Of a DNA stretch of 64,000 bases, positions 1,893-60,596 are shown piece by piece. Under the pieces are notes generated by a model. That model searched no databases. It was not told the DNA's origin and saw nothing but the letters and a program-made list of their open reading frames with translations. Made by a program: the position numbers and the translations under genes. Where the stretch lies: contig CAWILO010000005.1 in assembly GCA_963836955.1 (NCBI GenBank), positions 207,466-271,465 of the forward strand, read 5' to 3'. The DNA comes from an uncultured delta proteobacterium (lineage in GTDB: Bacteria > Desulfobacterota > Binatia > Binatales > Binataceae). Position 1 is the stretch's first letter. Every line of letters begins with the position of its first letter.

Positions 1893-3149
1893 ATGGAAAA
1901 AATGATAATTCACGGCGGTGCTCCGCTGCGCGGAACCGTCACGCTGAGCGGCAGTAAGAACGCCGCGCTGCCTATCATGATGGCGGCGCTGCTCACGTCG
2001 GAGCCGATTCAGCTCAGCAACGTGCCGCGGCTGCGCGACGTGAAAACCGCGATGGAGCTGCTCATCCAGCTCGGCGTCGCAGCGCGCTGGATCGATGAGC
2101 ATCGGGTCGAGCTTCACGCGGCAAAGGTTACCTCGCACGAGGCCTCGTACGAACTGGTCAAGACGATGCGCGCGTCGTTCGTCGTGCTTGGTCCGTTGCT
2201 GGCGCGAACCGGACGCGCGCGCGTTTCGACTCCGGGAGGATGCGCGATAGGCGCACGGCCGGTAAATTTGCATATCTCGGGAATTCGCTCGCTCGGCAGC
2301 AAGATCCAGTTTCGTCACGGCTACGTAGAGGCGCATGCCGAGAAACTGACCGGTGGCAGAATCTGGCTGGATTCGCCGTCGGTCGGCGCGACCGAGAATA
2401 TTTTGATGGCGGCGGTCACCGCACATGGTCACACCACGATCGAAAATGCGGCGCGCGAGCCTGAGGTTCAGGATCTCGCACGGCTGCTGGTCAAGATGGG
2501 TGCGAAAATTAGCGGCGCCGGCACGCACGTACTGGAAATCGAGGGAGTCGACCGGCTGCACGGAGCCGAGCACGAAGTCATACCAGACAGAATCGAGGCT
2601 GGCTCGATGATGGTGGCGGCGGCGATCACTGGTGGTGACGTCACGATTGCAAATGCTCCGATCGAGCATCTCGACGCGGTCGCGACCAAGCTGCGCGAGG
2701 CGGGCGTCATGGTCGAGGCGAATGGAAAAGGCCTTCGCGTCACGCGCAACGACAAAATCAAGTCGGTCGAGCTGCGCACGCTGCCGTACCCGGGGTTTCC
2801 TACAGATCTCCAGGCGCAGATGATGGCGATGCTGACGCAGGCGGACGGCACCTCGGTCATCACGGAGACGATTTTCGAAAACCGGTTCATGCATGCGCAG
2901 GAACTGGCTCGCATGGGCGCCGACATCGTGATGAAGGGACCGACCGCCGTTGTCCGCGGGCCGTCGAAGCTGAGCGGCGCTCCGGTCATGGCGACCGATC
3001 TGCGCGCCAGCATGGGTTTGATAATCGCGGGGCTCGCGGCAACACACACGACCGAGCTGAGCCGTATCTACCATCTCGACCGCGGCTATGAGGCGCTCGA
3101 CGCCAAACTGTCGCGACTCGGCGCGCGAATCGAGCGCGCCCAGGAATAG
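1893..3149 (+). CDS. murA: UDP-N-acetylglucosamine 1-carboxyvinyltransferase
   Basis: 418 aa with MurA N-terminus (IHGGAPLRGTVTLSGSKNAALPIMMAALL) and full-length EPT fold pattern. Confidence 0.9.
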   Translation: MEKMIIHGGAPLRGTVTLSGSKNAALPIMMAALLTSEPIQLSNVPRLRDVKTAMELLIQLGVAARWIDEHRVELHAAKVTSHEASYELVKTMRASFVVLGPLLARTGRARVSTPGGCAIGARPVNLHISGIRSLGSKIQFRHGYVEAHAEKLTGGRIWLDSPSVGATENILMAAVTAHGHTTIENAAREPEVQDLARLLVKMGAKISGAGTHVLEIEGVDRLHGAEHEVIPDRIEAGSMMVAAAITGGDVTIANAPIEHLDAVATKLREAGVMVEANGKGLRVTRNDKIKSVELRTLPYPGFPTDLQAQMMAMLTQADGTSVITETIFENRFMHAQELARMGADIVMKGPTAVVRGPSKLSGAPVMATDLRASMGLIIAGLAATHTTELSRIYHLDRGYEALDAKLSRLGARIERAQE

Positions 3150-3179
3150 TTCGAAGCAGTTTCTAAAGGTTCAATTCGC

Positions 3180-4589
3180 ATGAGGCCCCGGGTTCTCAAG
3201 TCCCAGACTCCTGAGTTTAGAAAATTTCTCGCGGCGATACTTGCGCGCCGCGGCGGCGACGACAGCGCCGGCGTCGATCAAGCGGTCGCGAAGATAATCG
3301 CCGACGTGCGCAAGCACGGCGATCGTGCGCTGATCGATCTGACGGCAAAGTTTGACGGCGTGAAGCTTACCCCAGCGACGATTCGGGTGACGCCCGCCGA
3401 GCGGCATTCAGCGATCAATCGAATTGCGGCTGAAGATCGCCACGCGCTGGAGCTGGCTGCGGAACGAGTCGCGGAGTTCCATCGCCGCACGATGGAGAAA
3501 TCGTTCATCTATCGTGACAAGTCGGGGATGCGCCTCGGCCAGATGGTCCAACCAATGCACCGGGTTGGAATCTACGTGCCCGGTGGACTCGGCGCGTATC
3601 CGTCGTCGGTGTTGATGAATGCGATTCCCGCCAAGGTCGCGGGCGTTGCGGAAATCGTGATGGTCTCGCCACCGTCGGCGGAGGGCGAGCGACTCGCGGT
3701 GCTTGCGGCCGCGGAAATCGCGGCCGTCGACGAATTCTACCGCGTCGGCGGAGCGCAGGCGGTCGCGGCGCTCGCATACGGCACGGAAACTATCAAGCCG
3801 GTCGACAAAATCGTCGGGCCCGGCAACGCCTTCGTACAGGCCGCCAAGCGGATGGTTTACGGCGTTACCGATATCGACAAGATGGCGGGGCCGAGCGAGG
3901 TGCTGGTGATAGCCGACGAGCGCGCGCGTCCCGAATGGATCGCCGCCGACCTGATCGCGCAGGCCGAGCATGGTTCGGGCGACGAGGCGGCCGTGCTGCT
4001 GACAACGTCGGCGAGTATCGCGCAGCGCGTGGCCGAGGAGATCGAAATCGCGCTGAGAAGCCTGCCGCGTGCCCGCCAAGTCGAGGCCGCACTGGTCAAA
4101 AGGGGAGCGATGGTCGTCGTACAGGATTTGAATGAGGCCTTCGACCTGGCCAACGAGATAGCACCGGAGCATCTCGAGCTCGACGTGCGCAATCCGTCGC
4201 GATGGCTGCCGAGGGTCAAAGCGGCGGGCGCGGTTTTTCTCGGGCCGCTGACGCCGGCTCCGCTTGGCGACTATCTTGCGGGCCCGAATCACGTGCTGCC
4301 GACGGGCGGAGCGGCGCGTTTCGCGTCGCCTTTGGGTGCATACGATTTCCTGAAACGAACCAGTATAATCGAGGCCTCGATGGGCGCGATTGCGGCGCTC
4401 GGACCGGCCGTGGCGCATCTGGCGCGGATGGAAGGGTTCGAGGGTCATGCGCGCGCGATGGAACTTCGAGCGGGCGCTGATGGGAAGGCGAAACGGGCAG
4501 GCGGAAATCGAAATGCAAAGCCGGCAGGGGTGACCTCTGCACCCAGTATTAATGCAAAACAAACGAAAGAAACTACGAAACGAAACTAA
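3180..4589 (+). CDS. hisD: histidinol dehydrogenase with an unusual basic C-terminal tail of about 35 aa
   Basis: 469 aa. HisD-like throughout (GIYVPGGLGAYPSSVLMNAIPAKVAGV; QAEHGSGDEAAVLL). Typical HisD is about 430 aa; the Lys/Arg-rich tail overlaps the hisB start. Confidence 0.85.
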   Translation: MRPRVLKSQTPEFRKFLAAILARRGGDDSAGVDQAVAKIIADVRKHGDRALIDLTAKFDGVKLTPATIRVTPAERHSAINRIAAEDRHALELAAERVAEFHRRTMEKSFIYRDKSGMRLGQMVQPMHRVGIYVPGGLGAYPSSVLMNAIPAKVAGVAEIVMVSPPSAEGERLAVLAAAEIAAVDEFYRVGGAQAVAALAYGTETIKPVDKIVGPGNAFVQAAKRMVYGVTDIDKMAGPSEVLVIADERARPEWIAADLIAQAEHGSGDEAAVLLTTSASIAQRVAEEIEIALRSLPRARQVEAALVKRGAMVVVQDLNEAFDLANEIAPEHLELDVRNPSRWLPRVKAAGAVFLGPLTPAPLGDYLAGPNHVLPTGGAARFASPLGAYDFLKRTSIIEASMGAIAALGPAVAHLARMEGFEGHARAMELRAGADGKAKRAGGNRNAKPAGVTSAPSINAKQTKETTKRN

Positions 4590-6454: not shown

Positions 6455-6625
6455 ATGGATCTGATCAGGAAACTGTACGTGAAGGGCGACACGTTCGCGC
6501 GCGGCCAGACGATGGCTGAGTATGCGCTTATCCTCGCAGCCGTCGCAGTGATTGTCTACGCCGGATACCAGACGATGGGCACGACGATCACCGCGCTGCT
6601 AACCAGCGTCGACGGCAAGCTGTAG
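6455..6625 (+). CDS. flp: Flp/Fap family pilin, copy 1
   Basis: Prepilin processing motif G/QTMAEYALI followed by a hydrophobic helix (LAAVAVIVYAGY). The ORF finder starts at 6419; the ATG at 6455 (MDLIRK) is more likely. Confidence 0.7.
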   Translation: MDLIRKLYVKGDTFARGQTMAEYALILAAVAVIVYAGYQTMGTTITALLTSVDGKL

Positions 6626-6719: not shown

Positions 6720-6887
6720 ATGGACCTGCTGAAAAGGGTGGCGGGGTTTTTCCGCCTGTCGAGGGGGCAGACGATGGCGGAGTATGCGTTGCTCCTGGCG
6801 TCCGTGGCGGTCATCGCCTATGCCGGCTATCAGAAGATGGGCACGTCCATCACGGCGGTACTGAGCAACGTTGATAGCAAGCTATAG
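6720..6887 (+). CDS. flp: Flp/Fap family pilin, copy 2 (tandem paralog)
   Basis: Same G/QTMAEYALL motif and hydrophobic core. C-terminus TAVLSNVDSKL parallels copy 1 (TALLTSVDGKL). Likely start is MDLLKR at 6720. Confidence 0.7.
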   Translation: MDLLKRVAGFFRLSRGQTMAEYALLLASVAVIAYAGYQKMGTSITAVLSNVDSKL

Positions 6888-28585: not shown

Positions 28586-29953
28586 TTACAGGATCGATTC
28601 AGCCTCGTAGGCGCATCCCTTCACCAGCCGGCCAACATCGTAGTTCCATTCGCCCTTCCACTTGCTGATCACGAGGCTGGCGTTGCTGTGGCCGCTCCGG
28701 ACCAGGTCCATCAGGCGCAACAGGTAGATGCTCTCGTCGTGGCCGAGATTGTTCAATGCTCGCTGACGCTCGAGTCCCTTCGCCGCTATCTGCATCAGCT
28801 CGTAGCCGAGCTCCCGCAGCCTGATTTTTCCCGCCCGCGCGTCGAGACCATTCTTATGCGCCGCGTCAGCGATTTCCAGCCGCTCGCGATAGCTCCATCC
28901 CTTGACCAGGTCCCACGCCGCCCCGAGGCAATCGTCGGTGTAGAGCATCCCCTTCAACAGCGCGGGCAGCGCGAGCATGTACTGCGGCGGCTGGCTGTCG
29001 GCAGTGCGTATCTCGACGTAGCGCTTGAGCCGGACCTCGGTAAATATCGTCGTCAGGTGATTGGTCCAGTCCTCGACGGTGGCGCGCTCGCGTCCGTATC
29101 CGCGCTCGAGATACTGGCGGAAGGTAAGACCGGGCGGCTGCGTCAGATCGATATACTCATGGTTACGAATCAGGAAGTACATCGGCACGTCGAGCGCGAA
29201 CTCGGCGTAATCTTCGAACGAACAATCGGGGCGAAACACGAACTCGGGGACGCCGCTGCGTTCGTTGTCGGTGTCGGTCCAGATATGCCCGCGGAAGCTG
29301 TGATAGCCGTTCAGGCCGCCGTCGCTTAGCGGTGAGTTCGCGAAGATCGCGTACAGCAGCGGCACGATACCCATGCTCACGCGCAGCTTGCGGATAGCGT
29401 CGGCCTCGTCGCTGTAGTCGAGGTTGGCCTGCACGCCCGCCGTTTGCTTCATCATGCGCTGGCCCAACTTTCCCTTGCGCGCCATGTACGGGTACATGAT
29501 GTGGTAGCGGGCTTTCGGCAGCAGCTCGATTTGGTCGATACGGCTGACGGGCTGCATCCCCAGTCCGAGCACGGTCGCGCCGACCTGGCTGGTGAGATCG
29601 ATCAGCTGATGTACGTGCGTCGCGAACTCGGCGTGGGCGCAGTGGATGTCGACGCATTGCTCACCGGACAGCTCGATCTGACCGCCGGGCTCGAGCGTAA
29701 TCGCGGAGCGTTCACCCTTGAGCGCGAGGATATGGTCGTGCTCGTCTTCAGGCTCGAAGCCGTAGTCGGCAGCCATCCGGCGCAGGAGATCCTCGACGCC
29801 GCCGGGACCGGAGTAGGGGATAGCGGTGCCGTCCGCAGTGCGGACTACGACTTTTTCGTATTCGGTGCCTATGCGCCATTGCGCGCGCGGCTTGCCGCCT
29901 TCATGGAAGTAGCGGATGAGGTCGTCTTTCTTTTCAAGCAAATCACTCATCAA
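28586..29953 (-). CDS. gshA: glutamate--cysteine ligase (GCS2/plant-proteobacterial type)
   Basis: 455 aa; family-typical blocks (GTEYEKV; RYHIMYPYM; HIWTDTD; EVRTADS). Confidence 0.8.
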   Translation of the reverse strand: MMSDLLEKKDDLIRYFHEGGKPRAQWRIGTEYEKVVVRTADGTAIPYSGPGGVEDLLRRMAADYGFEPEDEHDHILALKGERSAITLEPGGQIELSGEQCVDIHCAHAEFATHVHQLIDLTSQVGATVLGLGMQPVSRIDQIELLPKARYHIMYPYMARKGKLGQRMMKQTAGVQANLDYSDEADAIRKLRVSMGIVPLLYAIFANSPLSDGGLNGYHSFRGHIWTDTDNERSGVPEFVFRPDCSFEDYAEFALDVPMYFLIRNHEYIDLTQPPGLTFRQYLERGYGRERATVEDWTNHLTTIFTEVRLKRYVEIRTADSQPPQYMLALPALLKGMLYTDDCLGAAWDLVKGWSYRERLEIADAAHKNGLDARAGKIRLRELGYELMQIAAKGLERQRALNNLGHDESIYLLRLMDLVRSGHSNASLVISKWKGEWNYDVGRLVKGCAYEAESIL

Positions 29954-30117
29954 TCAAATCCAATCGCGACTCTCTGAAAAGAAGGCTCCGCCAAGCGCGC
30001 TTATAATGTCCCCGCCAGATACGCGAGGCAAGCACGAACGAAAGGGTTTCGGAGCCGCCGCTGATCCCTCGCACACGCTCCCAATTCTAACAAGGACGAC
30101 GCCCCGCATCTCACTTA

Positions 30118-30176
30118 GTACTGGGTGCAGGGGTCACCCCTGCCCAGGGAAGTGTGAAACCCACGGCGGGTTTCAC
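30118..30176 (+). repeat. palindromic repeat element copy A (core double hairpin)
   Basis: CAGGGGTCACCCCTG hairpin plus GTGAAACCCACGGCGGGTTTCAC hairpin. Near-identical to copies at 32427-32525 (inverted) and 52065-52163. Confidence 0.8.
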
Positions 30177-30243
30177 ATTCAATCCAGTGAGGTCCCTCGA
30201 CTTTGCGCAAAAACGTGTAAGATGGCGCCGGAGAAATTTCGCG

Positions 30244-31746
30244 ATGCCTCAGGTGATACTTGCGATCGATCAGGGTACTACCGGCACGACGGTTTTTGTC
30301 GTCGATGCACGCGGACGGATTCGCGGACGCGCTTACGCCGAGATACGGCAGCTCTACCCGAAGCCCGGATGGGTCGAGCATGATCCCGAAGAAATTTACC
30401 GCTCGGTCGTCACACTTTCGAAAAAAGCGATCGCCGCCGCCAAGATTTCCGCCGGCGCGATCGCCGGAATCGGAATCACCAATCAACGCGAGACGTTCGT
30501 GGTATGGGAGCGGCGCAGCCGCCGCCCGGTTTATCGCGCGATCGTCTGGCAATGCCGCCGCAGCGCCGCTATCTGCGACGCCTTGCGCGAGCGCGAGCCC
30601 GAAGTTGCGAGCCGCACGGGACTGATCATCGATCCGTACTTCTCCGGCACCAAGCTCAAGTGGCTGCTCGACGAAAAGCCCGAACTGCGCGAGCGTGGCG
30701 CGCGCGGCGAGCTGTGCTTCGGCACGATCGATACCTGGCTGGTGCATAAGCTGTCGCGCGGAGCGGAGTTCGTGACCGACTACACCAATGCGTCGCGCAC
30801 GATGATGTTCAACCTGGCGCGCCGGGAATGGGATGACGAGATGCTCGCGATGCTGGGCGTTCCGCGCGAGATGCTGCCCCGCGCCGTCAGTTCGCGCGGC
30901 CCGACTGCAGCGACGGCGGCGGGCACGATCGCGTCGCATGCGATTCCGATCGCCGCGATGATCGGCGACCAGCAATCGGCGCTGTACGGCCAAGGCGCGG
31001 TCGCCGCCGGCGACTCGAAGGCTACTTACGGGACGGGGGCGTTCCTGCTGATGAACACCGGCGACAAGATGGTGCCGTCGAAGAATCGATTGCTCACCAC
31101 GTCGGCACTCGGCCCCGCCGGCGAGCCTGCGTATGCGCTCGAAGGTTCCGTCTTTATCGCGGGCGCCGCCGTGCAATGGCTTCGCGACGGCCTGAAGATC
31201 GTGCGCAACGCCGCGGATACATACGCGGAGGCGCGCGCCAGTCTTGCGATAAATAAGGATCGCACACAGCCCTACGTGGTGCCGGCGTTCGTTGGACTCG
31301 GCGCGCCGCATTGGGATGCGACGGCGAAGGGCGCGATCGTGGGAATCACCCGAGGCACGACCCGTGCCGACGTAATCCGCGCGACGCTCGACAGTATCGC
31401 CTACCAGGTTCGCGACGTAATAGTTGCGATGGAGTCCGACACCGGGCATCCGATGAGCGAGCTGCGCGCCGACGGAGGCGCGACCAAGAATCGCTACCTG
31501 ATGCAGTTCCAGGCGGATATTCTTGGCAAGCCGGTCCTGCGCGCGAAGATCGCCGAAACCACTGCGATGGGCGCGGCGATGCTCGCGGGGCTGGCGATGG
31601 GAGTGTGGAAATCGCCCGATGAGTTGCGGGCGATCGTCAAGGGAGCGGACGTGTTCAAGCCAAAAATGCAAACCGCCGAACGCGAACAATTGCTCGCCGG
31701 ATGGCATGACGCGGTTGCGCGTGTGCTCACGAAGCCGTCGAACTGA
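30244..31746 (+). CDS. glpK: glycerol kinase
   Basis: GlpK N-terminus MPQVILAIDQGTTGT and full-length FGGY kinase pattern. Start trimmed from 30154; the upstream 30 codons are a translated repeat element. Confidence 0.9.
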   Translation: MPQVILAIDQGTTGTTVFVVDARGRIRGRAYAEIRQLYPKPGWVEHDPEEIYRSVVTLSKKAIAAAKISAGAIAGIGITNQRETFVVWERRSRRPVYRAIVWQCRRSAAICDALREREPEVASRTGLIIDPYFSGTKLKWLLDEKPELRERGARGELCFGTIDTWLVHKLSRGAEFVTDYTNASRTMMFNLARREWDDEMLAMLGVPREMLPRAVSSRGPTAATAAGTIASHAIPIAAMIGDQQSALYGQGAVAAGDSKATYGTGAFLLMNTGDKMVPSKNRLLTTSALGPAGEPAYALEGSVFIAGAAVQWLRDGLKIVRNAADTYAEARASLAINKDRTQPYVVPAFVGLGAPHWDATAKGAIVGITRGTTRADVIRATLDSIAYQVRDVIVAMESDTGHPMSELRADGGATKNRYLMQFQADILGKPVLRAKIAETTAMGAAMLAGLAMGVWKSPDELRAIVKGADVFKPKMQTAEREQLLAGWHDAVARVLTKPSN

Positions 31747-31764
31747 ATCGAGGAATCGAAAACA

Positions 31765-32403
31765 ATGCCTGAGAATGGAAAACCGTACGTCACCGCCTTG
31801 TATCCCGAACAGCACGACCAGGCCGCCGACTCGCTCGGCCGCGCCTTCATCAACGATCCGACCTTCAAGGCGATAATTCCGGATATAACCGACCCGGTCG
31901 AGCGCGCGGCCCGCCTGGCAGATCTGTTCCGCGGGATGCTCGCGATCGAACGCCGTTCAGGGCAGCCAGTGTTCGGAATCGTCGACGACAATGGACGTGT
32001 CGTCGCAGCCGCGATGACCGAAGGCGTCGGGCATCCGGGAGCGCTCGGGTTGGTCGCCACCGGCCTTGGACAGATGCCGCGTATGATCCGGGCGATCGGA
32101 ATGGGCGGGTTGTGGCGGGGGCTCAATCTCGTCAGCGTACTGTCAAACAATCATCCTAAGGAGCCGCACCTGTACCTGCAGGTGCTCGGATGCGATCCGC
32201 CGTTCCAAGGTAAAGGTTATGGCAAGGCGTTGGTCGACAGGATCGCGCTCGAGGCAAAGGCGCGGCCTGAAATCGCCGGCGTCTACCTCGAGACGATGAC
32301 CGAAGCCAACGTCGCGTTCTACAGTTCCAGGGGCTATGAAGTCCTGGGCGAGTTGTATCCGCTGGGCGTCAGGACATGGCGGATGTACCAACGGACGAGA
32401 TGA
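31765..32403 (+). CDS. GNAT family N-acetyltransferase
   Basis: 212 aa with GNAT core (QGKGYGKALVDRI) and C-terminal motif (FYSSRGYEV). Confidence 0.7.
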   Translation: MPENGKPYVTALYPEQHDQAADSLGRAFINDPTFKAIIPDITDPVERAARLADLFRGMLAIERRSGQPVFGIVDDNGRVVAAAMTEGVGHPGALGLVATGLGQMPRMIRAIGMGGLWRGLNLVSVLSNNHPKEPHLYLQVLGCDPPFQGKGYGKALVDRIALEAKARPEIAGVYLETMTEANVAFYSSRGYEVLGELYPLGVRTWRMYQRTR

Positions 32404-32426
32404 AACGAGATAGGAGCGAATTGAAT

Positions 32427-32525
32427 GTTAAACCCGCGGTGGGTTTCACACTTCCTTCGGCAGGGGTGACCCCTGCACCCAGCGTCAATCGCAAAGTTGC
32501 GCGCAGCGCACTACTTTGCTCTCGG
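32427..32525 (-). repeat. palindromic repeat element copy B (inverted relative to A and C; extended triple-hairpin form)
   Basis: The reverse complement matches copy C over about 100 bp, including the third hairpin GCAAAGTAGTGCGCTGCGCGCAACTTTGC. Confidence 0.8.
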
Positions 32526-32632
32526 TCACATAAATTCGGTTCCGCTCCCCGCTCTGGAAGGGGTTACTTCCACGATCCGGTTCCCCTTCCCGCGCGGCCC
32601 GAAAAAAGGGGTTAGGGGTTAGGTTCTTCTGG

Positions 32633-32860
32633 TTAGGTCGTGGAGGTTCGTGGATGGATCGTCGTCACGCGAAGTCCCTTTGACGTCCAGCCGACGTCGA
32701 AGCCGACGATATCGCCCTCGCGAATCAGATCGATCCCCGGCATCGTGCCGCCGATTTGCGCGCCCACAACCGCCACGAATGGGAACTCGAAGGGGATCTC
32801 CTTGCCGCTATGCGAGCGCACCACGCCGCGGCCGCGTGCGCGGTCGAGCTTGAGGATCAT
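32633..32860 (-). CDS. small hypothetical protein with cold-shock/OB-fold-like pattern
   Basis: 75 aa from MILKLDRARGRGVV. Spacing of hydrophobic and Gly residues resembles a CSD/OB fold. The longer ORF overlaps the neighbouring gene. Confidence 0.3.
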   Translation of the reverse strand: MILKLDRARGRGVVRSHSGKEIPFEFPFVAVVGAQIGGTMPGIDLIREGDIVGFDVGWTSKGLRVTTIHPRTSTT

Positions 32861-32928
32861 CCCCTGGTAGAAATTTCCCGGAAAGCGCTCGCTGTCATAT
32901 TCTTCATTGGCCACTATACAGATGATAC

Positions 32929-33741: not shown

Positions 33742-34110
33742 ATGCGGTCGAATCCGATGGAAACCGATAATCCTGCCGCCCGGAAGAAACTGAAAGAGCG
33801 ATTGCGCCAGCTGATCGGCACCGGCGCGAGTTCTATCGTGCTTGCGACAACGATCCTGAGTGCAATTCCTGCGGACGCAAATGTCGCGGACTTAAATCCC
33901 GCGGGAACTCTTAAGCAGCGCGTCGAGAAGGTGCGTCCGCAAGCGCAAGACGCGGACGCCAATCTGATCAAGCAGGGTGATTCGAAAATCCAGTTGGCCT
34001 GGTGGCGTAACTGGCGCAACGGCGGATGGCGCGGCTGGGGTTGGCCGAACTGGCATAACTGGCCGAACTGGCACAACTGGCATAATTGGCACAACTGGCA
34101 CAATTGGTAG
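33742..34110 (+). CDS. candidate RiPP precursor: signal-peptide-like leader plus C-terminal Trp-rich tandem WxN repeat
   Basis: Strong SD (AGGGGG) before the ATG at 33742. Leader has a positively charged n-region (RKKLKERLRQ), a hydrophobic core (LIGTGASSIVLATTILSAIPA) and an ADA|NV cleavage-like site. The C-terminus is imperfect 9-bp tandem repeats (aactggcay) ending in WPNWHNWPNWHNWHNWHNWHNW and a stop. Confidence 0.5.
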   Translation: MRSNPMETDNPAARKKLKERLRQLIGTGASSIVLATTILSAIPADANVADLNPAGTLKQRVEKVRPQAQDADANLIKQGDSKIQLAWWRNWRNGGWRGWGWPNWHNWPNWHNWHNWHNWHNW

Positions 34111-34173
34111 CACCTGATTCGCAGTAGCATTGCGGCGCGCGTCGCAAAGGCGCAGCGCTGAGCGATATTCAAG

Positions 34174-52035: not shown

Positions 52036-52064
52036 GCGAGTCACAAAGACGGATCTTCTGTCGA

Positions 52065-52163
52065 CCGAGAGCAAAGTAGTGCGCTGCGCGCAACTTTGCG
52101 ATTGACACTGGCTGCAGGGGTCACCCCTGCCCAGGGAAGTGTGAAACCCACGGTGGGTTTCAC
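52065..52163 (+). repeat. palindromic repeat element copy C (extended triple-hairpin form)
   Basis: Matches copy B (reverse complement) over about 100 bp and copy A over the 3' 58 bp. Confidence 0.8.
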
Positions 52164-52234
52164 TACGTCAAGTTCCTAACGGCCGCGCCCCTACTAGCGG
52201 CGTAGGCGGGCGTCCGTTAAAACTTATAGGTCTT

Positions 52235-60014: not shown

Positions 60015-60063
60015 TCACGAAGCAGCGACAACGGAGCGGTGACAGTGCAAGACCTAAATCATT

Positions 60064-60085
60064 GGATGCAGGGTCACCCCTGCCT
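60064..60085 (+). repeat. partial repeat element copy D (first hairpin only)
   Basis: GCAGGGTCACCCCTGCC, one G shorter than in copies A-C. Confidence 0.5.
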
Positions 60086-60596
60086 ACATCATCTGCAAAG
60101 CCTGGCAGGTGTGCGATTCGGGTTTGAACTGACCGCTGAGACACGACAGCTTGGCGGCATCGATTAGCGCCGGCTCGTCCCATTTCGTCGGCCACGGCCC
60201 GGTATTGACGGCGGCGCACGCCTGGTTGTTGCCCATCGAACACCACGCACTCAACTCTCCATGCAGCACCGCCATCTGCTGGCACGCGTCCTGTTTGCCG
60301 GCATTACAGGCAGGGGTTCCCGTCAGAATCGGCGCAGTGGACTCGATCAGGACCTTGGTGTCACTCACCTGCTGCACGATTGTATGACACGCAGCCTCGT
60401 TACCTTCGTTGCATCGCTGGGTTGATTCGGCGCGAACCTTCTCGACAAAATCCTCCGCCGGCCCTGTGCATCCCGAGGCGCCGAGCAGCGCGACCGCGAG
60501 CGCGAACATGCTGACGACGGCGGCCAGGCTCGCGGCGTGCGCTCTGGATTCGGCGGGCATCGGCGCATTGTTTCGCGCGCGATTAGTGTCACGCAA
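60084..60596 (-). CDS. Cys-rich lipoprotein
   Basis: Lipobox LLGASGC; 10 additional Cys in the mature part. Confidence 0.5.
   Translation of the reverse strand: MRDTNRARNNAPMPAESRAHAASLAAVVSMFALAVALLGASGCTGPAEDFVEKVRAESTQRCNEGNEAACHTIVQQVSDTKVLIESTAPILTGTPACNAGKQDACQQMAVLHGELSAWCSMGNNQACAAVNTGPWPTKWDEPALIDAAKLSCLSGQFKPESHTCQALQMM

Follow-up and report, generated by a model that had tools for sequence, protein, structure and literature searches.

Repetitive extragenic palindromic (REP) sequences and bacterial interspersed mosaic elements (BIMEs) of Escherichia coli and other Enterobacteria are imperfect palindromes, short and rich in GC, that occur outside genes in hundreds of copies, in either orientation and for the most part just 3′ of a gene. 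The BOX elements of Streptococcus pneumoniae (boxA-boxB-boxC) are likewise modular and intergenic, with predicted stable stem-loops and a fixed A-Bn-C order. A repeat of this general kind is described here from a stretch of 64,000 nucleotides (the window) of an uncultured delta proteobacterium of the Binataceae (GenBank assembly GCA_963836955.1, contig CAWILO010000005.1, positions 207,466 to 271,465). Two inverted copies, A and B, lie at the two ends of a segment that holds the glycerol kinase gene glpK and a gene for a GNAT acetyltransferase. These copies very probably belong to a dispersed, non-coding, modular REP/BIME-like hairpin repeat family of Candidatus Binatus/Binataceae.

Copy A (30084-30183, plus strand) comprises a degenerate H4 module (30084-30112), the hairpins H2 (30121-30144) and H3 (30152-30176) and an ATTCAAT tail, and scores 93 bits against a covariance model of 83 family members. 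Copy B (32404-32527, minus strand, 84 bits) consists, in window order, of a 23-nt tail directly 3′ of the GNAT stop codon, H3 (32427-32451), H2 (32459-32482) and a third hairpin module, H1 (32491-32519), which makes up the extra 40 nt of this copy and is absent from copy A. A repeat search of the window pairs 30121-30183 with 32420-32482 (63 nt, 94% complementary). The original prediction, made from the letters of the window, had described near-identical reverse complements at the two ends of the glpK-GNAT segment, and both their positions and their likeness (about 94% identity) hold. The two hairpins that it named, the CAGGGGTCACCCCTG hairpin and the GTGAAACCC-N5-GGGTTTCAC hairpin, were recovered in both copies, far above the expectation from dinucleotide-preserving shuffles: the 17-nt H2 motif gives 8 strand-matches at 4 sites (0.01 expected), and the GTGAAACCC-N5-GGGTTTCAC motif gives 3 matches (0.01 expected). 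Folding of copies A and B on the element strand yields z of −3.2 to −5.2 against shuffled sequence.

The window holds five copies (A-E) in 64 kb. Copy C (52063-52169, plus strand, 78 bits) is a complete H1-H2-H3 unit between a gene for a major facilitator superfamily (MFS) transporter (stop 52035) and one for an aminotransferase (ATG 52235). Its portion 52063-52163 is 93% identical to copy B over 101 nt, and it is 96% identical to copy A over 57 nt, so copy A is closer to C than to B. Copy D (4508-4550, minus strand; 30 bits, E 1.6e-7) is H2 alone (4523-4546) with one stem mismatch, within the C-terminal tail of the hisD open reading frame (ORF; 3180-4589) at the hisD/hisB junction. The Histidinol_dh domain ends at residue 430 of 469, copy D falls in the last 39 codons, and the ORF overlaps the hisB start (4552); this copy appears to have rewritten the hisD C-terminus. 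Copy E (60020-60098, plus strand), in a convergent intergenic spacer, was added by the covariance-model search of the window (match 60058-60098, 21 bits, E 8e-5) and carries a degenerate H5-like module (AGCAGCGACAACGGAGCGGTGAC) and an H2 with a 1-nt deletion. Module make-up is thus degenerate H4+H2+H3 in A, H1+H2+H3 in B and C, and H2 in D. The pair around glpK and GNAT exists as first described, but it is not unique, since C, D and E occupy the same window.

The family is widespread among relatives. A 19-nt core probe was run against the genomes of 185,579 species, with matches reported as 8-kb tiles. At least 118 tiles match, in about 40 Binataceae metagenome-assembled genomes (MAGs); almost all are from Candidatus Binatus/Binataceae, several per genome and many labelled “uncultured delta proteobacterium”, and a few among the matches listed are from Polymorphobacter. 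The tiles contain 147 H2 copies, of which 35 lie beyond the copy that selected the tile, in 843 kb. In this non-ascertained set copies occur once per 24 kb, compared with once per 13 kb in the window; by extrapolation, a 4.6-Mb genome would carry about 200-350 copies. The original prediction had reserved the description of a generic REP-type element, as opposed to a bracket of a mobile module, for a repeat found at many unrelated intergenic sites, and the distribution is of that kind. Its broader suggestion of a REP/BIME-like or MITE-like family (MITE, miniature inverted-repeat transposable element) is supported by the copy number, the intergenic sites, the use of both orientations and the mosaic build.

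Related sequences also occur in other settings. Five IMG/VR “viral” contigs (L201-L205) carry typical mosaics (e.g. H4-H2-H3, H1-H2-H3) and are probably Binataceae chromosomal fragments or prophage flanks. In Polymorphobacter (Alphaproteobacteria; L005, L030, L060, L071, L075, L080), multiple intergenic repeats have the identical core GGGTGCAGGGGTCACCCCTGCC, followed by CGCCGGAGGC where Binataceae have H3, and one copy carries the compensatory variant GGGCTCAGCCC. A REP core common to Binataceae and Polymorphobacter could reflect horizontal transfer or convergence.

The modular anatomy of the family was drawn from a module scan together with a listing of 155 oriented copies. Its hairpins include H1 (GAGAGCAAAGTAGTGCGCTGCGCGCAACTTTGCGATT), H2 (CTGGGTGCAGGGGTCACCCCTGCC) and H3 (GTGTGAAACCCACGGCGGGTTTCAC). 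The core hairpin reads CTGGGT-GCAGGGG-TCA-CCCCTGC-C, and H2 is a 17-bp near-perfect palindrome. A 5′ slot, which is empty or holds H4 (GTTCTAACAGGGACGAAGTCCCGCATCTT), H1/H1b or H5, precedes H2, and a 3′ slot, which is empty or holds H3/H3b, H3′ (GCGGGGCGCGCAGCCCCGC) or H6, follows it. Architectures include H2+H3 (31 copies), H4+H2+H3 (22), H1b+H2+H3 (21) and H2 alone (15), with further combinations involving H3′, H3b, H6 and H5. The CCCCTTCCCC motif is the usual tail after H3 in other H2-family copies. A defining BIME trait is therefore present, namely a palindromic unit combined with a limited set of motifs in varying arrangement, and module content differs between orthologous sites. Four genomes keep H2-H3 in the MFS/aminotransferase spacer but differ in the 5′ module: the window has H1, L015 a different H1 variant with about 280 nt more, L084 an H4-like module, and L083 has none. 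These orthologues of the copy C site also differ in linker/loop type.

The stems are kept by compensatory substitutions. In H3, bases pair in 93.6% of cells, double changes occur at three pairs (UA<->CG 12, AU<->GC 19), and the covariation score was reached by none of 500 shuffles; compensatory changes are seen at four of nine pairs in H1 and two of five in H4. H2 copies that were not selected by the probe carry compensatory stem variants as well (e.g. GGGCTCAGCCC, GGCGTCACCGC). These variants bear on the idea that the H2 palindrome serves as a DNA-uptake sequence or is bound as double-stranded DNA by a host protein (a regulatory dimer or one associated with the nucleoid), which could explain a 17-bp palindrome of highly conserved sequence with an identical core in Polymorphobacter. 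However, the variants point to the fold and not the sequence, a density of one per 13-24 kb with strict intergenic placement is unlike that of uptake sequences, and attached hairpin modules are not expected of an operator. A protein-binding or uptake site is thus a highly improbable explanation.

Some copies are joined into inverted composites (H3-H2-H4, spacer, H4-H2-H3), found at 8-10 loci of about 150, roughly 300 nt long and with spacers of about 60-185 nt. Composites lie at L034 7646-7906, L036 7400-7597, L037 4675-4875, L067 6042-6255, L087 5845-6048, L090 4039-4327 and L091 2592-2854. Judged by their foldability into one long hairpin, they could be candidate replicating units like REPINs (REP doublets forming hairpins); such inverted doublets are a minor class among the copies, and singlets dominate. 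The same composites resemble MITEs with terminal repeats of about 100 nt, and this is the evidence in favour of classical MITEs, i.e. internally deleted insertion sequences with terminal inverted repeats, target-site duplications and a DDE transposase. Most copies, by contrast, are single units with unrelated ends, so they have no terminal inverted repeats, and their modules recombine freely. The sampled loci showed no full-length insertion sequence that matches, and no target-site duplication was definable at one clean empty site, where the gene ends have diverged. A MITE origin is very unlikely on these grounds.

Placement relative to genes is strongly intergenic and polarised. With genes called by a codon-usage caller trained on element-bearing loci, 136 of 140 copies are intergenic. 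Read in element orientation, the flanking genes are -- in 45 cases, ++ in 35, convergent in 35 and divergent in 21; the background spacers comprise 504 tandem, 123 convergent and 130 divergent ones. The H3 side faces a stop codon in 47 of 79 H2+H3 copies, at a distance of 5-37 nt (median 29, interquartile range 17-34), and H3′ copies lie a median of 5 nt from the stop codon. In the other cases the H3-side neighbour is a start codon, with a median distance of 78 nt. On the 5′ side the distances are spread broadly, also when taken from the outermost module. The window copies match these distance classes: copy A ends 68 nt before the glpK ATG, copy B lies 24 nt from the GNAT stop, and copy C lies 72 nt from the aminotransferase ATG. 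Orientation bias and copy number were both raised by the original prediction: both orientations are used with no strand bias, and the copy number is extrapolated.

The tight spacing of the H3 end to stop codons (median 29 nt) is also an argument for regarding the hairpins mainly as cis-acting RNA, that is as terminators without a U-tract, 3′-end stabilisers or a regulator in the glpK 5′ untranslated region (5′-UTR), in which case the family would consist of functional RNA modules instead of selfish DNA. The compensatory stem changes, folding z-scores of −3 to −5 and the conservation of copy A with its spacer to the glpK ATG across six genomes point in the same direction. Against this stand the use of both orientations relative to genes, including 21 copies between divergent genes, and the difference in module content at orthologous sites. 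The core pairs are nearly all Watson-Crick and the terminal pairs point opposite ways, so that a comparison of G-U with A-C stem asymmetry is ambiguous and gives no clear strand signal. A scan for intrinsic terminators over 29800-32800 found 3 sites against 2.7 expected from shuffles, none of them at H2 or H3, and no T-run follows H2 or H3. Promoter scanning at A and B gave background level and no canonical promoter. Rfam 15 returned a tRNA-Arg as the sole match at gathering score in the window, and no match at E<=1 in three element-rich loci. A mainly cis-acting RNA role is possible but doubtful. The earlier proposal of paired terminators or regulatory RNA structures found no positive support, there being no U-tract, Rfam match or strand bias; a passive role of the hairpins in mRNA 3′ ends may nevertheless exist.

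The history of the glpK-GNAT locus is informative about how A and B came to flank it. The locus was compared in 12 relatives, assembled from a metagenome scan, the tiles that hold it and eight contigs with GNAT homologues. The order GCS2(−) / glpK(+) GNAT(+) / small ORF(−) occurs free of the element in L121, L124 and L122, and the glpK-GNAT-small ORF order is, by this comparison, ancestral. The stop codons of GNAT and of the convergent small ORF lie about 20 nt apart in L121 and L124 but are separated by 229 nt in the window, so that copy B is an insertion and the B site is empty in these two relatives. L002, L206, L207, L208 and L213 (GNAT identity 86-92%) carry both A and B at the corresponding positions, and the B site is also occupied in Binatus soli, with diverged H2 variants. 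The B site appears older than the A site. All carriers share orthologous sequence from H2 onward to the glpK ATG, and beyond the 5′ edge of H2 they are no longer homologous.

In several relatives the GNAT frame enters H2 and ends at the TGA of its loop (L207 5620-5660, L208 5620-5660, L213 4620-4660, L212 4620-4650). The final codons read CAG GGG TGA in L207, L208 and L213, and CAG GGC TGA in Binatus soli. In the window and L206, GNAT and H2 are separated by about 70 nt more (tail, H3, linker), and this difference points to stepwise module gain at an old insertion. L208 carries an IS1595-family transposase gene and two tandem H1b-H2-H3 units upstream of glpK (692-1621 and 2879-3416). In L209 (3489-4868; GNAT 80% identical), the adjoining glpK is split into ORFs of 391 aa and 56 aa, 42-47% identical to that of the window, and represents a copy that has decayed or been replaced; GNAT is followed there by an inserted enoyl-CoA hydratase gene.

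The original prediction also offered a bracket left by mobilisation or inversion, in which A and B would be terminal inverted repeats enclosing glpK and GNAT as a composite module that could move or invert. The copies are indeed inverted at the ends of a two-gene unit, and the A...B arrangement recurs in five other genomes with differing left flanks, one of them with an IS1595 transposase nearby. The left flank of carriers may be GCS2 directly, GCS2 with an MFS gene and a 310-aa ORF, an IS1595 region or other genes. However, left flanks also vary among element-free relatives, L121 having a 1.1-kb insert and B. soli a Kelch gene; this spacer is thus variable with or without the repeats. The right flank (the small ORF, then a radical-SAM or ABC block) is unchanged in every relative, with or without elements, and the gene order exists without them. 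No inverted or relocated glpK-GNAT unit was seen among the 12 relatives. Copy A is nearer to C than to B, A and B differ in module make-up, the B site seems older, and the H3 ends of A and B face inward, opposite to those of the family’s own inverted composites. No target-site duplication, the sign proposed for A and B, was definable between the filled and empty B sites, a weak test given that the gene ends have diverged.

Inverted pairs are also common elsewhere. Among 24 neighbouring pairs of copies 0.3-4 kb apart, the orientations are +- in 8, -+ in 8, -- in 5 and ++ in 3, so that 16 of 24 are inverted. Such pairs enclose one to five ordinary genes, and Pfam searches of ten enclosed genes found ordinary enzymes only. 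The bracket around glpK and GNAT is thus one of many such coincidences, kept by descent within a subclade. A mobile or invertible module was rejected on the constant right flank, the element-free gene order and the synteny in 12 relatives, and is scarcely credible as an explanation.

The neighbouring genes are context and lie outside the element. glpK (30244-31746, plus strand) encodes FGGY_N and FGGY_C domains, and the GNAT acetyltransferase gene (31765-32403, plus strand) follows it. A small convergent ORF (32633-32914, minus strand), with a conserved part of about 92 aa and no Pfam match, is the constant right-hand neighbour of GNAT in all relatives. The longest glpK ORF opens at a GTG at 30154, inside hairpin H3. 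glpK homologues align from residues 24-30 of this long ORF onward and ATGCCTCAGGTGAT is conserved, which places the true start at the ATG at 30244 and bears out the earlier reading of copy A as a spurious N-terminal extension. Proteins of the window are 86-97% identical in amino acids to those of element-bearing Binataceae MAGs, which places the window in a Binataceae genome.

Other short repeats occur in the same spacers. A second repeat family, unrelated to the H2 family and listed here without a strand, occupies 32528-32632 and fills the remainder of the 229-nt GNAT/small-ORF spacer beside copy B; a full unit (GATCCGGTTCCCCTTCCCGCGCGGCCCGAAAAAAGGGGTTAGGGGTTAGG) lies at 32575-32629 and a partial one at about 32532-32566. 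BLAST with 32528-32632 matches many unrelated Binataceae loci, where the repeat is often split into two halves. Another short hairpin repeat (GCCTCTCTCTATCAGGGAGAGGC and variants) was seen in Binataceae intergenic regions (L121 870-900, L212 2425-2450, L092 about 2990), and a repeat of this type is present upstream of glpK in relatives that lack copy A.

As copies of a dispersed hairpin repeat family, A and B have the following history. Copies of the family persist for long at orthologous sites, with modules gained, lost or swapped in place. A and B are old insertions: each entered a spacer of a pre-existing GCS2 / glpK-GNAT / small-ORF block, B before the Binatus soli split and A in the ancestor of a subclade, and both have been vertically inherited since; empty sites are found in relatives outside the subclade. 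Their inverted orientation is a by-product of high copy density. As to mechanism, copies might spread as folded single-stranded DNA recognised by a trans-acting transposase of the HUH/RAYT type (RAYT, REP-associated tyrosine transposase), and transcribed copies might serve as passive 3′-end hairpins, stabilising mRNA or dampening read-through.

Several points weigh against placing the copies in a REP/BIME-like family. H2 looks invariant in the alignment partly because loci were chosen with an exact H2 probe, and the copy total per genome is extrapolated from tile and window density and not counted. GTAG, typical of RAYT-associated REPs, lies near the 5′ foot in 5 of the 149 H2 copies, and none of the 149 has CTAC at the 3′ foot; a conserved leader, TTAATAC(T/C)GGGT, stands in place of GTAG. 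No transposase is tied to the family: a phmmer search with E. coli RayT against the window ORFs and the 118 tiles (0.9 Mb, about 2% of the genomes) gave nothing at E<=10, a null that is uninformative since fewer than one RAYT locus is expected in that sample. Copy A and its spacer to the ATG are conserved in six genomes although the upstream DNA differs, and from this pattern copy A could have acquired a local role for glpK, e.g. as promoter/5′-UTR context or insulation.

Covariation also extends outside the helices. Linker column 29 and H3-loop column 49 (30145 and 30165 in copy A of the window) read C-G in 43, G-C in 37 and other combinations in 3 of 83 H2+H3 copies, and have the top mutual information. 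Linker column 35 always equals stem column 41, which pairs with column 57; the two states number 64 and 19, with no exceptions. Because the column sets 29/49 and 35/41/57 are interleaved and all four combinations occur, single crossovers between subfamilies cannot explain the pattern. The linker is AAGGAGGTG or AAGGAAGTG and resembles a Shine-Dalgarno sequence. By inspection, neither pairing of the post-H3 tail (CCCCTTCCCC) with the purine-rich linker nor alternative registers that might account for column 35 equalling column 41 gave a consistent helix. The covariation, the stop-codon polarity, the stepwise addition of H3, the absence of GTAG and the Polymorphobacter core leave room for the unlikely reading that the H2-H3 unit exceeds a generic REP and is recognised by a new mechanism. 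H2-H3 might, for instance, be read through pairing of loop and linker, tertiary or of a guide type, by a transposase other than a classical RAYT that would target the 3′ ends of genes and have crossed between phyla.

The family matters for annotation and assembly as well as for mobile-element biology. The repeats create false N-terminal extensions (glpK) and alter C-termini (hisD), and a hairpin loop supplies the GNAT stop in relatives. They are likely break or chimera points in Binatota MAG assemblies, which is relevant to gene callers and binning tools. A literature search with the core sequences and with Binatia and REP returned nothing relevant, and Binatota go unmentioned in the RepRanger survey; no earlier description of a REP/BIME-type family in this uncultured soil phylum was found. 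The modular build, the stop-codon polarity and the extra-helical covariation are handles for finding the mobilising enzyme. The result does not amount to a new kind of mobile gene cassette.

Two unrelated features of the window were recorded. Eight tandem 9-nt units (TGGCCGAAC, TGGCATAAC, TGGCACAAC) lie at 34042-34113, with ORFs overlapping on both strands; the plus frame encodes a W-(P/H)-N tripeptide repeat. Two 128-nt copies with 76% identity, 262 nt apart (6498-6625 and 6760-6887), match adjacent small ORFs (68 and 72 aa), and this looks like a tandem gene duplication.

Several described systems resemble the family in part. GC-rich hairpins a few nucleotides after stop codons are also the mark of Rho-independent terminators; unlike these, the copies have no U-tract, occur upstream of genes and between divergent genes as well, and have conserved loops and linkers. 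Like BOX, the family combines a small number of conserved sub-elements in different ways; the two are unrelated in sequence and host, and here alternative modules compete for the 5′ and 3′ slots around a constant core. As in the REPIN/RAYT system of Pseudomonas, some inverted doublets can fold into a long hairpin and singlets look like decayed doublet halves (Bertels and Rainey 2011, PMC3116915; PMC3337134). Doublets here differ from those REPINs in forming a minority, about 8-10 of 150, in their much greater length of about 300 nt and in their variable spacers. The likeness to the REP/BIMEs of E. coli and other Enterobacteria lies in the build: the units are short GC-rich imperfect palindromes in many extragenic copies (hundreds here, by extrapolation), in either orientation and mostly just 3′ of genes, they form mosaics with other motifs, and they cluster in some spacers. 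The Binataceae family differs from them in its unrelated sequence, in lacking the 5′ GTAG, in having no RAYT linked to it as yet, in its host within the uncultured phylum Binatota, and in its usual unit, which joins two or three different hairpins.

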